From NCBI GenBank assembly GCA_001797275.1, contig MGOY01000008.1, positions 14,083 to 78,082 of the forward strand: a stretch of DNA of 64,000 nt. Reading direction: 5' to 3'. The notes under the pieces were generated by a model, which was given only the letters and a program-made list of their open reading frames with translations, had not been told where the DNA came from and searched no databases. The DNA comes from Clostridiales bacterium GWF2_38_85. Its GTDB lineage: Bacteria; Bacillota; Clostridia; Oscillospirales; CAG-382. Positions 5,671-51,666 of this stretch are shown piece by piece. Position 1 is the stretch's first letter; every line of letters starts with the position of its first letter. The translations under genes were made by a program, and so were the position numbers.

Positions 5671-5738
5671 TATATATTAAACTAACATCAGTATTTTATT
5701 ATAGAATGTACAGCATTTCATTTGTTAGTCTAAATATA
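5671..5738. repeat. short or decayed copy of the AT-rich palindromic element family
   Basis: Left arm TATATTAAACTAACA matches the 51557 copy over 15 nt. The right arm CATTTCATTTGTTAGTCTAAATATA is its imperfect complement. Confidence 0.55.
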
Positions 5739-8596: not shown

Positions 8597-8687
8597 GTAT
8601 AAAACTAATAAATGATTTACATCAGCTATTTGATATAAGTCATATAAATATTCTATAGAATTTACATATTTGATAAGTTAGCTTTTA
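8597..8687. repeat. degenerate copy of the palindromic element family
   Basis: GTATAAAACTAATAAATGATTTA (8597-8619) matches the T-variant arm TATAAAACTAATAAATGAATTA. A decayed partner arm AATTTACATATTTGATAAGTTAGCTTTTA lies at 8659-8687. Confidence 0.4.
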
Positions 8688-9012
8688 GGAAAGCGCTTCG
8701 CATTTTCGGAAGGTTAACGATAAATTATTATATCATATAACCAATTCTCTTTCAAGTACAAATTAATATTTTTCACAATTCAATCCCACTGCCAATAGAT
8801 TTTATCTGACAGCGGGATTATTATAACCAATCTTGTTCTATTATGATTAATTATTGTTTATCTGCAAATAATATGATTGAGGTAGAACAAAGGAGATAGG
8901 GAATTTTGTGCTTGAGTACAAAAAGTAAATTACTCAACCGTATACAATTCAGCGGATATAATACGTCAGATTGTATACGGAACAAATAACATATCCTGCC
9001 TTTGCGAAAGGG

Positions 9013-29827: not shown

Positions 29828-30741
29828 TAATTTATCACTCCTGTGTACCATTTTGGAATAGGATTTTGCATATAATCGTAGAATTCTAATACTTCCTTTG
29901 ATTGATTTAGCATTGTTTCTATTTCTTTCCGGCCGAAAGGTATTGCCCAATATACTGATGAAAGAGTGTTTGATATAATATAAAATGCAAGCAATTTAAA
30001 AAAATCTTCTGGTACTTCATTATTAAAATAACCGTTTATTCTGCCGGAAGCGAAATATTTACTGCAATGAGCGCACCAAACAATACGATTGAATTCTTCC
30101 CAAGGGTCTCCGTAATCAAATCTGTTGAAATCAATTATAGATAAATTGTTATCTGATGAAATTATCATATTACCGACATGGTAATCTCCATGATTCAACG
30201 ACTGAGGACGATTTGCAAGCAAATGTCTGTTTTTTTCGATATAATCAAAGAAATAGTTATCACCGTCTATTTTTATACCGCATTCAAGGTATTTTTTAAT
30301 TTTATTATCTGTTTTTCTATTGAATCGTGTTTCCCAGTTTTCCTGAGTTGCAGGAGCCGGAATTGAATGAATTCTCTGAAGTATTTTCCCTGCTTCAACA
30401 CCAATCTCATATTGCTCTTTCGAAGACAGCTCGTGTAATATTGTTTCAGCATCCTCGCCCTCAATCCATGTTAGAAGCATATAACAATTTAACCCTTTGT
30501 TACAATAACCAAAGTCAATCGGCTGCGACATAGGTATCTCTGTTTCGGATATTGTTTTCAATACTTTGAATTCTGATTTTTTGCGGTCATAGTTTAATGC
30601 ATCAGACAATCGCAGCAGCAAACGTCGGTTATCATTGGTTTCAATATAGTATTTCTTATCCTCAGACCAACCTTTTTCAACCAGTATGACTTTTGAGAAT
30701 GAATTGTATTGAGGTATGTCAGAAATCAAATTAATCTCCAT
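29827..30741 (-). CDS. aminoglycoside phosphotransferase (APH)/choline-kinase-fold kinase
   Basis: Brenner motif NHGDYHVGNMII and IIDFNRFDYGDPWEEF. The true start may be the TTG 15 nt downstream of the ATG. Confidence 0.8.
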   Translation of the reverse strand: MEINLISDIPQYNSFSKVILVEKGWSEDKKYYIETNDNRRLLLRLSDALNYDRKKSEFKVLKTISETEIPMSQPIDFGYCNKGLNCYMLLTWIEGEDAETILHELSSKEQYEIGVEAGKILQRIHSIPAPATQENWETRFNRKTDNKIKKYLECGIKIDGDNYFFDYIEKNRHLLANRPQSLNHGDYHVGNMIISSDNNLSIIDFNRFDYGDPWEEFNRIVWCAHCSKYFASGRINGYFNNEVPEDFFKLLAFYIISNTLSSVYWAIPFGRKEIETMLNQSKEVLEFYDYMQNPIPKWYTGVIN

Positions 30742-30921
30742 TCTACCGCACAGCGGTTATAAAAATATAGCGTGAAATGTGTTACCTCACTATATTATAT
30801 AAAACTAACAAATGAATTAGGATATTATTGATTTTGAAAAAGCCGTACAGAAAAGGCTTTTTCAAAATCGCTAAGGTAATTCATTTATTAGTTTTATATA
30901 GTTAACTTAATTTTCACGCTA
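30742..30921 (-). promoter_or_regulatory. conserved leader unit, copy A (TAGCGTGAAAA box ... GC hairpin ... start), interrupted by a nested palindrome
   Basis: Homologous to 33241-33319 at about 80% identity outside the insertion. See findings. Confidence 0.6.
30796..30900. repeat. 105-nt AT-rich nested palindromic element, full copy 1
   Basis: Outer arms TATATAAAACTAACAAATGAATTA / TAATTCATTTATTAGTTTTATATA. Inner perfect 15-bp stem GATTTTGAAAAAGCC / GGCTTTTTCAAAATC. Confidence 0.85.
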
Positions 30922-31429
30922 CCTCCAAAAATTTCTTTATTTCTTTTCTTGTTTTCAGAATAATAATATTTTTTCCTTTTTGGTACTCAATCATTTTAAT
31001 GATATCCGGTCGACTTCTCTTAGGAAAATTGTATATCCATTTTAAAAACTCAAAATCTATCTTCTCTTTACAACCGCTACCCATATCCGGTCGAACTTTA
31101 CCGATATGTGTCAAGCATCGTTTTATCACACTGTAAAGGCAAATCCACCTCTTAATATCAAGAAAAATTATTGTATCAGCTTTTTCAGCTCTCAAATCCA
31201 TTGTGCCGCCGTAATTTCCATCGATTATCCATTCTTCGGCTTCTATTATTTTTGTTTGCACTTCTATCCACTCATCTCGTGGTGTTTGAATCCAATTATC
31301 TTTCCAGAACAGCTTGTCAAGATGAATAAGAGGCAAGCTTAATTTATTATGTAACTTTTTCGCAAATGTAGTTTTTCCGCTACCGGCACTACCTATAATC
31401 ATAATGCGTTTAGATTCTGATAAATCCAT
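30914..31429 (-). CDS. P-loop NTPase, adenylate-kinase-like (topology modulation protein family)
   Basis: Walker A IIGSAGSGKTT and about 170 aa, matching the FlaR/topology-modulation-type small kinase pattern. Confidence 0.7.
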   Translation of the reverse strand: MDLSESKRIMIIGSAGSGKTTFAKKLHNKLSLPLIHLDKLFWKDNWIQTPRDEWIEVQTKIIEAEEWIIDGNYGGTMDLRAEKADTIIFLDIKRWICLYSVIKRCLTHIGKVRPDMGSGCKEKIDFEFLKWIYNFPKRSRPDIIKMIEYQKGKNIIILKTRKEIKKFLEVA

Positions 31430-31966: not shown

Positions 31967-33240
31967 TTCAATCCTTCCAGTACATCAATAATTTCTGTCC
32001 AATTCTTTATATGCTGATGGTTATAATCAATAGTATCGGTGTATTTGTCACGATAATAGCATTCAATATTGCTGTCATACCACACAGGAAACATACCGGC
32101 TGAGTTTGCTCCTGCGATATCATAATAGACATTATCACCGCAAAACCAAATTTCTTCGGGTTTCAGATTTGCTTTTTTTATTGCAAGCTCAAATATCATA
32201 GGATCGGGTTTTCGCACAATATATTCACTTGATGCTATTATAAATTCGAATTTATTATTAGGAAAATTTTTGTTTATACGTTCTGCGAGAGAATCACCTG
32301 AGAATGAAATATTGCTTATAACACCGCTTCTGATTTTATTTTCATTTATGTAACTGATAACTTTATCTATATCAGACATTTTTTCACCGGGCGCAGCGTT
32401 ATCCCAGAATATCTGCTCTATCTCATCAGGCTCAAGTGGAATGTCAATTTCAAGATACTCGTAAAGCATGCGTTGAAATTTGTGATTGTGGAATTCCAAA
32501 GCATTTGTTCTTGCAATTGGCCTGAGCTTTGAAAAGAAATTTGCGGAAAACTCACTGTCTTGAATGGGTGTCAGATTGTTTTTATTATACACCGCATACT
32601 TCATTACAGCTTCGGTTCCCTTAACACCATTAAATCCGAGTTCGCACATCAGAGTATGACCATAATCAAATATAATCATCTTTGGATAAGTCATTTTAAG
32701 TTTGCTCTTTTCTTTTTCAGCTTTTCTCAATATATCTTCAAGAAAATCGTGTTTTCCTTCAATGTACAAGTCAATATCATGTCGATACTTTTCGGCAAGC
32801 TGTATTTTTAATTTGCCGTATTCATCTGCTGCTGTTTTATATTTACGCAGATAATCCCTGAATACAATATGTCTTGCAAGCTCACGGCTATTTTTCGGGC
32901 ATACATACATATGATAATCCATAAATTCATTCTTGAAGTTTCTCTTAAATGCTTCGCGTGCCTTAATTCCGAGATCACCTTCATGACTATATCCGAGTGC
33001 TTCAAGTCGATTGACGAGTTCGGGGAATATGTCATATGATTCAATTATGATATTGAAATCGATAATTGGCTTTGCTGATAATCCCTCAACCGATGTGCTG
33101 CCAACATGCTCAATCCCAATGATGATATCTGAGATGTGAGGCATTAACATATCTTTTATCTTCTCAAATTCGTTTTTCCATTCGGGGTTATAGGGTTCGA
33201 CAATAATTGTGCGGTTTGGATTATACATATTAATTTCCAT
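31963..33240 (-). CDS. GrpB (UPF0157, nucleotidyltransferase-fold) - HAD-like hydrolase fusion protein
   Basis: N-terminal half: IIVEPYNPEW...IEHVGSTSVEGLSAKPIIDFNI...HMYVC (GrpB). C-terminal half: IIFDYGHTL...SNISFSG...FCGDNVYYDIAGANSAG (HAD motifs I-IV, with the second Asp of motif I replaced). Confidence 0.75.
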   Translation of the reverse strand: MEINMYNPNRTIIVEPYNPEWKNEFEKIKDMLMPHISDIIIGIEHVGSTSVEGLSAKPIIDFNIIIESYDIFPELVNRLEALGYSHEGDLGIKAREAFKRNFKNEFMDYHMYVCPKNSRELARHIVFRDYLRKYKTAADEYGKLKIQLAEKYRHDIDLYIEGKHDFLEDILRKAEKEKSKLKMTYPKMIIFDYGHTLMCELGFNGVKGTEAVMKYAVYNKNNLTPIQDSEFSANFFSKLRPIARTNALEFHNHKFQRMLYEYLEIDIPLEPDEIEQIFWDNAAPGEKMSDIDKVISYINENKIRSGVISNISFSGDSLAERINKNFPNNKFEFIIASSEYIVRKPDPMIFELAIKKANLKPEEIWFCGDNVYYDIAGANSAGMFPVWYDSNIECYYRDKYTDTIDYNHQHIKNWTEIIDVLEGLK

Positions 33241-33319
33241 TCTGCCGCGTAGCGGCTGTATAAAATATAAGGTGAAATAAATTACCTTCCATCATTTGTT
33301 AAGTTAATTTTCACGCTAT
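33241..33319 (-). promoter_or_regulatory. conserved leader unit, copy B (compact)
   Basis: Minus-strand sequence TAGCGTGAAAATTAACTTAAC...GGTAATTTATTTCACCTTATATTTTATACAGCCGCTACGCGGCAGAATGGAAATTAAT. Confidence 0.6.
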
Positions 33320-34069
33320 CTGTCTCCTTTTATAAATGTCTCCGCTTTCGACAGAATATCCTTATATTTTTCATGTATAAGCAGGTTGCAAGTTGTTTCT
33401 CTATCTGTCCAGATATATTCTTTGATTTCCGAATTTGGTGTTATAACTGTGTTTGACACCTCAGACAAAAATAAAATTACCTGTTTTTGGCGAAGCGGAT
33501 TAATATTGTAAACTATTTCTTCACGAAAATCAAGTACTAATTTTACATTTATTCCTATTTCTTCTCGAACTTCGCGAATTGCTGTATCAGATTCAATTTC
33601 AAAAACTTCCGAATGTCCTTTAGGAAAGCTCCAGGTTCTTGATTTTTGTTGAAACAATAATAAATATTCGATATTGAAATTTGTTTTGCTTTTTTCGATA
33701 AATAATTACCCCACAGGATTTCTTATAAAGAGCATGTATTGTTGTTTTGAAATATAACTCTTGAAAATTAACCGCTTCGGCAACCTCTGCTTGATTTAGC
33801 TTCACATTTTCGGGAGCGACAACCCATTTATCTTCAACATCATCTTCTCTTTTAATTACAGCAATAATTCTTCCTGTGAACTGCTTGACAGGATGGTCAA
33901 CACCGAGAAGGTACGCATCCTGTTCCTCGCCATCGGGTGCAATAACACCTTCTATGTAGCCGTAATTCACTGGATAAATGATATTTTTATATTCAGGATG
34001 TGTGCTTCCAAGCGGTCTGTCTACTGTAACTATTTGATTTAATATATCATCATACATATCTATGACCAT
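33316..34069 (-). pseudogene. inorganic-pyrophosphatase-like domain - NUDIX fusion gene, interrupted by a 1-nt frameshift
   Basis: ORF 33620-34108 (VDRPLGSTHPE...YPVNYGYI...DGEEQDAYLLG...EDKWVV...SCGVIIYRKKQNKFQY) and ORF 33316-33657 (WSFPKGHSE...AIREVREEIGI). They join into one NUDIX domain if one base near 33668-33675 is removed (..KFQ-EYLLLFQQKSRTWSFPKGH). Confidence 0.7.
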
Positions 34070-38639: not shown

Positions 38640-38773
38640 TGTTTTGTTTAGACCTCCATAAATTAACACCTATACTTATCTCGATTAAAAACATAGATAA
38701 AATTCAAGGAAAAACTTTTGCTTTATGAGTTTTTTCGCAGAATTTTTTCGTAATGTTTTATGAGAGATTAGTA

Positions 38774-39535
38774 TTATAAACAACCCTCATCAGGTTCGGT
38801 AAGTATTATTGGTTCACCTTCTGTAATAGCAATCGTATGTTCATAATGAGCAGACAATTTCCCGTCTAATGTAATTATTGTCCACTTGTTATCTAAACAT
38901 CTGATATCCATTGTTCCCGTATTTACCATCGGTTCAATAGCAAAGGTCATACCGGGTATCAGTTTGATTCCTCTTCTTCCCATATCATAGTTGGGAACAT
39001 CAGGATTCTCATGGAGATTATGCCCGACACCATGCCCTATGAATTCTGTAACAACACTGTATCCTTCAGAAGTTGCAACCGACTCGACTGTTTTTGAAAC
39101 ATCATTCAATCTGTTATCTGCTCTCGCCATTTTTACAGCTTCGAAGAAGCTACGACGGGTAGTTTCAATCAAATGTTTTGCTTCATCGGAAATCGAGCCG
39201 ACTGCAAAAGTTGCGGCAGTATCTCCATGAAATCCTTTATAAAAAGCGCCGACATCAATCTTAACGATGTCACCTTCTTTTAAAATTCTATCAGAAGGTA
39301 TGCCATGAATAACCTGTTCATTTATACTGATACATGCTGAATTCGGAAACCCGTTGTAATTCAGGAACGAAGGCTTTGCACCGTGTCCTGTTATAAAGCT
39401 TCTGATTTTTGCATCTATGGTTAATGTACTAACACCCTCTTTGACAAGGCTTCCACCATATGCAAGTGCATTTCCGGCGATTTTCCCTGCTTCACGCATT
39501 AAAGCGATTTCGGAATTGTTCTTTAAATATACCAT
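38774..39535 (-). CDS. map: type I methionine aminopeptidase
   Basis: Motifs DIVKIDVGA, GHGVGHNLHE and FAIEPM. Confidence 0.95.
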   Translation of the reverse strand: MVYLKNNSEIALMREAGKIAGNALAYGGSLVKEGVSTLTIDAKIRSFITGHGAKPSFLNYNGFPNSACISINEQVIHGIPSDRILKEGDIVKIDVGAFYKGFHGDTAATFAVGSISDEAKHLIETTRRSFFEAVKMARADNRLNDVSKTVESVATSEGYSVVTEFIGHGVGHNLHENPDVPNYDMGRRGIKLIPGMTFAIEPMVNTGTMDIRCLDNKWTIITLDGKLSAHYEHTIAITEGEPIILTEPDEGCL

Positions 39536-50732: not shown

Positions 50733-50830
50733 CTTGTTAGCCTCCTTATAAATTTTGACGGCTGCGGTCTTAACACGCGTCCGGGCGTTTCTTATTCAAC
50801 ATTTAAAAAACGCTGACCGCTTCGCCCGAT
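50733..50830 (-). promoter_or_regulatory. structured 5' leader of the S10 operon (candidate pseudoknot)
   Basis: Interleaved 6-bp GC helices: 764-769 pairs with 815-820, and 782-787 pairs with 823-828 (offsets within 50xxx), just upstream of AAGGAGG. Confidence 0.4.
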
Positions 50831-51047
50831 TTTCGGACATACTCTGTAAAAGTTACCTGCCGCCATCAGTTACGACAGCTTCCACAATGGCAATTGCGTG
50901 CAGCAATCTCTTACTTCATTGCATATCAAGCTTGGTAAGTATACAGCTTTTTCGCCCAAATTGCAATAGCTTTCTGCAAATTACTCAATTAATATTGTAA
51001 ACAATTTGTGAACTTCAAGTACGACGTATTATACACTGTATTATATA

Positions 51048-51555: not shown

Positions 51556-51666
51556 TTTATATTAAACTAACAAATGAATTGTGATTTTATTAATTTGAAA
51601 AGACCAAAGAGTATAGACACTTTTCAAATTGCTTAGGTAATTCATTTATTAGTTTAATATAGTTAA
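51556..51666. repeat. AT-rich nested palindromic element, full copy 2
   Basis: ATATTAAACTAACAAATGAATT...AATTTGAAAAG(N17)CTTTTCAAATT...AATTCATTTATTAGTTTAATAT, followed by AGTTAA as in copy 1. Confidence 0.85.

Follow-up and report, generated by a model that had tools for sequence, protein, structure and literature searches.

A nested palindromic repeat in a groundwater Clostridiales genome, probably a new family of TA-inserting MITE

The window analysed here, a stretch of 64,000 nucleotides from Clostridiales bacterium GWF2_38_85, is part of a bacterial chromosome: the S10-spc ribosomal operon occupies part of its minus strand and ordinary metabolic genes are present too, and a phage origin was ruled out by this operon and by the lack of any match when the phage collection was queried with the window region containing the first palindrome. 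Two full copies of a palindromic element are found in it. Copy 1 has a P-loop kinase gene on one side and an APH gene on the other, all within a run of small hydrolase and kinase genes read from one strand, and lies 13 nt past a stop codon; the neighbouring APH protein shows 100% identity to one of the groundwater MAG 'Clostridiales bacterium GWF2_38_85'. Copy 2 occupies a gap of about 1 kb, poor in genes, which extends from rpsJ (minus strand) to a TSCPD-domain gene (plus strand). The strand of copy 1 is the orientation set by the family alignment.

30796..30900, plus strand: copy 1 of the element, 105 nt including the TA at each end; profile score 80.4 bits
30796-30819, plus strand: left terminal inverted repeat of copy 1, TATATAAAACTAACAAATGAATTA; its outer TA (30796-30797) is the putative duplicated target
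30820-30829: left spacer of copy 1, 10 nt, GGATATTATT
30830..30869, plus strand: inner hairpin of copy 1, a perfect 15-bp stem in which GATTTTGAAAAAGCC (30830-30844) pairs with GGCTTTTTCAAAATC (30855-30869) around a 10-nt loop, GTACAGAAAA; this portion varies with compensatory changes throughout the family
30870-30876: right spacer of copy 1, 7 nt, GCTAAGG
30877-30900, plus strand: right terminal inverted repeat of copy 1, TAATTCATTTATTAGTTTTATATA; its outer TA (30899-30900) is the putative duplicated target
51558..51661, plus strand: copy 2 of the element, 104 nt; profile score 81.3 bits

The arms of copy 1 are 24 nt long and 96% complementary, with a single C/T asymmetry in which A93 of the right arm stands opposite C14, a feature common to the whole family. 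Copy 2 retains this asymmetry, its right spacer is GCTTAGG, and its inner stem (ATTTGAAAAG/CTTTTCAAAT) has one base less per side than that of copy 1. The sequence-only reading of this DNA had described the nested anatomy at 30796-30900, a second full copy, matched indels between the two inner stems, the shared asymmetry with a GCTWAGG spacer and the lack of coding capacity. Arms, spacers, inner stem and loop were all found as described; the indels are indeed matched, because the inner stem of copy 2 loses one base on both sides; and the ORFs that overlap copy 2 are merely incidental ones of 27-34 aa. The range 51556-51666 previously given for the second copy takes in a few flanking bases beyond the element itself.

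Folding energies of -44.3 kcal/mol for copy 1 and -28.3 kcal/mol for copy 2 were obtained, compared with -13 kcal/mol for shuffles, and no shuffle equalled either of them. The z-scores on the two strands were -12.2 and -11.6 for copy 1, and -5.9 and -8.6 for copy 2, and the inner hairpin of copy 1, folded as DNA, gave -13.9 kcal/mol (z = -7.9). The arm consensus has 6 matches within the window versus 0.73 expected. By both of these measures the similarity stands clear of AT-rich background; a fall to that background was what the sequence-only reading had named as a refutation.

Copy 1 is harboured by an intergenic leader unit of about 85 nt, which occurs twice in the window, once with the palindrome and once without it.

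30738..30925, minus strand: leader unit B, carrying the element, flanked by the P-loop kinase and APH genes
33237..33321, minus strand: leader unit A, paralogous and without the element; a paralogous empty site whose divergence is too great for the junction to be fixed

On the coding (minus) strand the unit contains a hairpin, UAGCGUGAAA/UUUCACGCUA, followed by a U-run, and directly ahead of the ribosome-binding site a second, 5-bp hairpin of the form CCGC-NNN-GCGG, in which a compensatory G-C to A-U change has taken place (ACCGC-TGT-GCGGT versus GCCGC-TAC-GCGGC). The palindrome occupies the apical loop of the outer hairpin of unit B and is missing from the unit at 33237-33321, which upholds the earlier claim that it was inserted inside the leader unit. 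Closure of the outer stem around the palindrome is still possible, and the whole region folds with -64.9 kcal/mol. We observed that the genes behind the two leader units, APH and GrpB-HAD, are unrelated; the units have no Rfam match, and further copies were not found in the genome's DNA examined, about 250 kb with the window included. The units may be attenuators or a shared regulatory leader. Upstream of rpsJ, where such a leader is to be expected, window positions 50822-50928 (minus strand) also match the Rfam S10-Clostridia ribosomal protein leader below threshold (28.6 bits, gathering score 35.1, E = 0.0014); copy 2 of the element is outside this match, since about 630 nt separates them.

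The element is not limited to the two window copies, a limitation that the sequence-only reading had considered as a point against mobility. A two-arm pattern scan of the JGI metagenomes returned 20 exact-arm copies on 19 stretches, all of them in metagenome Ga0209417, and a profile built from these exact-arm copies recognized 6 further diverged copies, plus partial ones, in the flanks of the same stretches. On the basis of exact protein matches, the copy-bearing contigs of Ga0209417 represent the same genome as the window. In total at least 28 full copies, 103-105 nt in length, are present in this one genome besides decayed and short forms; the number is a lower bound because the scan required exact arms and missed the window's own two copies. 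Two of the reduced forms are located in the window.

8597..8700, minus strand: decayed copy in which the right arm with the spacer is well preserved (8597-8641), the left half has degenerated and no inner hairpin is left; 18.1 bits
5673..5738, plus strand: short derivative of about 66 nt, in which the arms TATATTAAACTAAC ... CATTTGTTAGTCTAAATATA are recognisable and the interior is replaced or deleted

An arms-only derivative of about 72 nt, akin to the one at 5673-5738, was noticed at locus L123 (3848-3920); internally deleted forms therefore coexist with the 105-nt form. The flanks of the copies are mutually unrelated, and identical or near-identical copies occur at several loci: the copy of L116 is identical to that of L115, L118 and L129, and those of L121, L123, L124 and L125a are 1-2 nt different. 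Identical or near-identical copies amid unrelated flanks point to a recent amplification of the family.

All copies are intergenic, their neighbouring genes being tandem, convergent or divergent, and no orientation bias relative to genes was detected (10 versus 11, and 11 same versus 15 opposite). This distribution fits a selfish insertion which is tolerated solely outside genes, and is unlike that of a transcription unit or a dedicated terminator. Beyond this genome, the element had no match among the IMG/VR viral contigs and no significant match in the plasmid collection; a search of the GTDB genomes with a 17-mer of the arm gave at least 111 single chance matches in unrelated taxa, with no real copy among the matches listed, and full-text search found the arm sequences in no published paper. 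In independent short-read assemblies (Logan) contigs of the same organism end exactly in the palindrome loop at both window copies.

Window position about 30850: position 1 of contig L113
Window position about 51587: position 1 of contigs L133 and L134

These breaks are an assembly artefact of long perfect hairpins, by which the genome is fragmented at every copy.

The same genome contains other repeats as well. One is a second MITE-like family, unrelated to the first, whose members measure about 108 nt and end in inverted repeats that are imperfect and about 24 nt long (TATACTTATCTCGATTAAAAACAT ... ATGTTTTATGAGAGATTAGTAT); its window copy is situated between two genes of the ribosomal-protein gene region, and copies elsewhere in the genome are 88-92% identical to it. 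Another is a 38-nt motif, TGCTTCGCATTTTCGGAAGGTTAACGATAAATTATTATA, which recurs in intergenic DNA, at three places 100-300 nt from a copy of the palindromic element, and which could be a promoter/operator motif or a third repeat family.

Window 38671-38778: second MITE-like family, window copy
L130 4435-4542: second MITE-like family
L128 10448-10521 and 6101-6209: second MITE-like family
L117 7756-7821: second MITE-like family
Window 8695-8732: 38-nt motif
L130 9281-9318: 38-nt motif
L121 1082-1116 and 1188-1255: 38-nt motif
L118 571-624: 38-nt motif

In the family alignment A1, which comprises 23 copies of the palindromic element, the terminal arms (TATWAAACTAAYAAATGAATT) are nearly invariant: 13 of the 22 pairs never vary, and a compensatory change was seen in one pair. 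The C14/A93 mismatch is present in most of the 23 copies, three others having G at position 93 and therewith a C-G pair; the mismatch is ancestral. The spacers, GTGATTTTATT and GCTNNRG, are conserved and asymmetric, and the element as a whole is directional, being scored by the profile at about 90 bits forward versus about 28 bits reverse. The inner stem behaves in another way. Compensatory changes affect 7 of its 14 pairs with 93.7% of the cells paired, and this level of covariation was reached by none of 500 shuffles and by no slid control; the stem variants include TTTGAAAAAAGCC, ATCATGAAAAAGCC and CATTCGATTAAGAACC, each with its own complement. In composition (A-tract, GCC/GGC, T-tract) the inner hairpin is like a weak bidirectional terminator. 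The arms do not fold on themselves, whether or not the spacers are included (0 to -1.7 kcal/mol, z about 0).

All copies start with TATAT and finish with ATATA, and have TA at both ends. Beyond the termini no direct repeats of 2-9 nt were found at any offset, only the TATATA termini themselves matching; any duplication must therefore be a TA or TATA hidden in the palindromic ends, and in most copies a TA duplication is indistinguishable from the palindromic TATATA termini. The copy of locus L115 allows a comparison, since it sits in one inverted repeat of an IS3-like element, 19 nt inward from the element's end, and the other inverted repeat of that element is AGTAGACAGTTGAAATAACAAAAA. When this copy was excised in silico, removal of 103 nt (TA duplication) gave a match of 24/24 to the other repeat, as against 20 for 105 nt (no duplication) and 22 for 101 nt (TATA duplication). 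Target-site duplications, which the sequence-only reading had regarded as a mark of mobility, are thus favoured in the form of a TA duplication by a single paralogous comparison. The empty-site comparison of the leader units gave scores of 90, 89 and 85, these units being too diverged to separate the models. Searching for orthologous empty sites through the flanking proteins APH and S10 retrieved only the same strain; such a site is lacking because the nearest relative is too distant (its APH is 65% identical).

The IS3-like element itself (L115 1-1187) is about 1.08 kb long and has a frameshifted rve-type transposase. Its junction with the palindromic element recurs at the ends of L118 and L129 with at least two different flanks; therefore the IS3-like element apparently spread or was duplicated after the palindrome had landed in it.

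The insertion sites have a strong bias. The calculation was made on 26 sites, one of which belongs to a copy cut by a contig end and has a spurious flank; the 25 that are usable comprise 3 CTAG sites, 21 half-CTAG sites and a single site of neither type, while the intergenic TA background consists of 0.23% CTAG, 16.9% half-CTAG and 82.9% neither (binomial p = 9e-17 for a C or G on at least one side). If the preference is symmetric and about 21-fold per side, 4.9/17.1/4.0 are predicted, which is compatible with the observed counts. A C on the left and a G on the right are anticorrelated at the flanks and rarely occur together (Fisher p = 0.005), which gives the appearance of a one-sided C. CTAG is, however, very depleted in the window plus loci L114-L132 (about 250 kb), with 28 of 17,032 NTAN sites overall and 6 of 2,604 intergenic ones; this rarity, combined with a symmetric preference, explains the pattern. 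A one-sided target with single-strand transposition was accordingly dropped once the CTAG background, about 0.2% of TA sites, had been counted. Inversion of the core between the arms was rejected as the source of the flank pattern, the T/T and C/A arm mismatches staying tied to the internal orientation. The GTTAA found after both window copies is not conserved in the other copies and is a coincidence.

Taking these results together, we consider that the palindrome is probably (at roughly 75%) a new family of non-autonomous, TA-inserting MITE with a transposase of the IS630/Tc1-mariner type as its mover. IS630-family elements insert at TA and duplicate it (PMC2170065), and IS630 itself prefers TA within 5'-CTAG-3' according to the work of Tenzen and Ohtsubo (1991) as it is listed in PMC2170065. 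The sequence-only reading had offered three possibilities, of which the MITE finds support in at least 28 dispersed copies, near-invariant repeats, TA ends, the evidence for TA duplication and the CTAG-type preference; a small structured RNA gene and a partner TnpA of the IS200/IS605 type find none. In the proposed mechanism both repeats would be bound by a DDE transposase of the IS630/Tc1-mariner type, whose gene may lie elsewhere in this genome or have been lost since; the enzyme would excise the element and reinsert it at a TA, which would thereby be duplicated. The conserved asymmetric spacers may lengthen the transposase-binding sites. The target signature is the one feature from which we infer the link to the IS630 family.

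The cognate transposase which the sequence-only reading had expected elsewhere in the genome did not come to light in the part covered: in about 250 kb the search for an autonomous element whose ends match gave none, and a crude regex detected no HUH/Y1 (RAYT, IS200) motif combination in the six-frame ORFs of that DNA. A degraded ISL3-family transposase is present at L117 7881-8800 as two frameshifted fragments (DDE_Tnp_ISL3, E = 3e-33; end GGCTCTGTGCC). This ISL3 remnant lies 400 nt from one copy, but was rejected as the parent since its ends (GGCTCTG...) are unrelated. The ends of the IS3-like element are unrelated as well, and it is a target of insertion instead of a parent.

A copy that is co-transcribed with its neighbours, e.g. 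copy 1, should endow the RNA with a hairpin predicted at about -44 kcal/mol. By analogy with reports on Correia elements, this hairpin, standing in the loop of a terminator-like hairpin in the case of copy 1, could affect termination or RNase III processing.

It should be emphasized that the plain MITE model leaves the compensatory evolution of the inner stem unexplained, as a classical MITE does not require it. Pairing of the inner hairpin might be kept by a fold-back which joins the ends, by a better tolerance of its transcripts, or by templated correction of quasi-palindromes. A bolder suggestion is that the interior is more than neutral cargo and that the inner hairpin is selected across the subfamilies, either as the required fold-back intermediate of an unusual single-strand or hairpin-dependent transposition (REPIN-like, vertically inherited, in Firmicutes) or as a mobile bidirectional terminator or RNA-stability module useful to the host and spread by the genome from operon to operon; we regard this as unlikely.

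Among the alternatives to a TA-inserting MITE, a REPIN-like origin would mean that inverted conserved repeats with a variable hairpin spacer are copied through single-stranded DNA by a single-copy RAYT (HUH/Y1) transposase and are passed on vertically. Near-invariant arms with a covarying inner stem fit the architecture of published REPINs (PMC3337134), and the JGI metagenome, IMG/VR and plasmid searches place the family in one genome only. Each REP should, however, hold its own imperfect palindrome, and the arms here are devoid of self-structure; the TA duplication favoured by the IS3-like comparison and a symmetric, CTAG-like target preference also argue against this origin, as does the lack of an HUH/Y motif in about 250 kb (crude regex). 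A Pfam scan of 20 of the about 145 flanking ORFs likewise yielded no RAYT (HUH/Y1) gene. REPIN/RAYT systems have been described mainly in Proteobacteria. Considering all of these, a REPIN-like origin appears distinctly improbable.

Another alternative is a functional RNA or a cis-regulatory hairpin, such as a bidirectional terminator, an mRNA-stability element or a small RNA gene, which would be repeated for its usefulness and not for its mobility. The very stable fold on either strand, the preservation of the inner stem by compensatory changes, its resemblance to a weak bidirectional terminator and the position of copy 1 shortly after a stop codon are in agreement with such a role. Rfam 15 gave no match at gathering thresholds, however, and in E-value mode only plant microRNA-precursor models appeared, with about 30 bits versus gathering scores of 100-140; the promoter and terminator scans gave no call on the element. 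Copies are found also in divergent promoter gaps and inside an IS end, without orientation bias; the arms are conserved in their sequence, beyond mere pairing; and the TA/CTAG signature of the flanks has no place in this explanation. The small RNA gene envisaged in the sequence-only reading has thus lost its footing, the copies lying in all gene contexts and in one IS end, and we hold a functional RNA in general to be very improbable.

The derivation of the element from IS200/IS605, in which TnpA would act on hairpin ends and insert 3' of a fixed short target without duplication, could at first sight invoke the C carried by one flank only, on the 5' side, and the TTAAC which both window copies follow on the minus strand, but it is largely refuted and has hardly any probability left, since the flank anticorrelation vanishes once the rarity of CTAG is considered, the flanking tetranucleotides are heterogeneous (TATC, TTAC, GTTC, TAAC and others) with none fixed on one side, the arms are true terminal inverted repeats which pair mutually in place of separate subterminal hairpins, the copies favour neither strand with respect to the direction of the genes, a TA duplication is the model with the best fit, and the crude regex found no IS200-type motif in about 250 kb; the partner proposed in the sequence-only reading thus finds no support.

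With the TA-inserting MITE as the preferred explanation, a conspicuous structured repeat is accounted for and needs no annotation as an RNA gene or a regulatory site, and the short-read assembly breaks of this organism, whose contigs end in the palindrome loop, can be attributed to it. Furthermore, the copies of a MITE are by themselves enough here to reveal an IS630-like CTAG preference, and this in a genome nearly without CTAG. The compensatory evolution of the inner hairpin poses the small question of what constrains the interior of MITEs.

Compared with known systems, the element has in common with REPINs the conserved inverted ends and a variable spacer which always keeps a hairpin (PMC3337134), but it differs from them in arms without an internal palindrome, in the evidence for TA duplication, and in that no RAYT gene was seen in about 250 kb. 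With IS630/ISY100 of the Tc1-mariner superfamily it shares the TA target and, probably, the TA duplication (PMC2170065), and the bias measured here is the same as the CTAG preference ascribed to IS630 by Tenzen and Ohtsubo (1991), in so far as PMC2170065 lists it; those elements are autonomous, about 1.1 kb long and encode a DDE transposase, whereas the new element encodes nothing.

Its design is closest to the pneumococcal RUP and the Neisseria Correia elements, two groups which have TA termini and hairpin transcripts in common (PMC2229807). The Correia/NEMIS elements of Neisseria, about 107 bp long with 24-bp terminal inverted repeats and TA termini, are similar to the new element; they also have a target duplication, as is probable here, and their transcripts fold into long hairpins which were proposed as RNase III substrates (PMC2229807), a long hairpin being predicted for the new element too. 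RUP, which also lands in IS elements and tends to do so (PMC2229807), has its counterpart here in the copy inside the IS3-like inverted repeat. The Correia elements are unrelated to the new element in sequence and in host phylum. No partner transposase is known for them. RUP is of like size (107 versus 105 bp), non-coding, intergenic and multicopy, has terminal inverted repeats and inserts at TA, as the new element does, and is thought to be mobilised by IS630-Spn1; no such candidate partner was found for the new element in about 250 kb. There is no sequence similarity between the two, and the repeats of RUP contain 9 contiguous pairs in contrast to 22-24 nt here. What sets the new element apart from RUP is its host, an uncultured groundwater Clostridiales, and the prominence of a nested inner hairpin with compensatory variation; in other respects it is a selfish repeat of the ordinary sort: the family is new, the kind of system well known.
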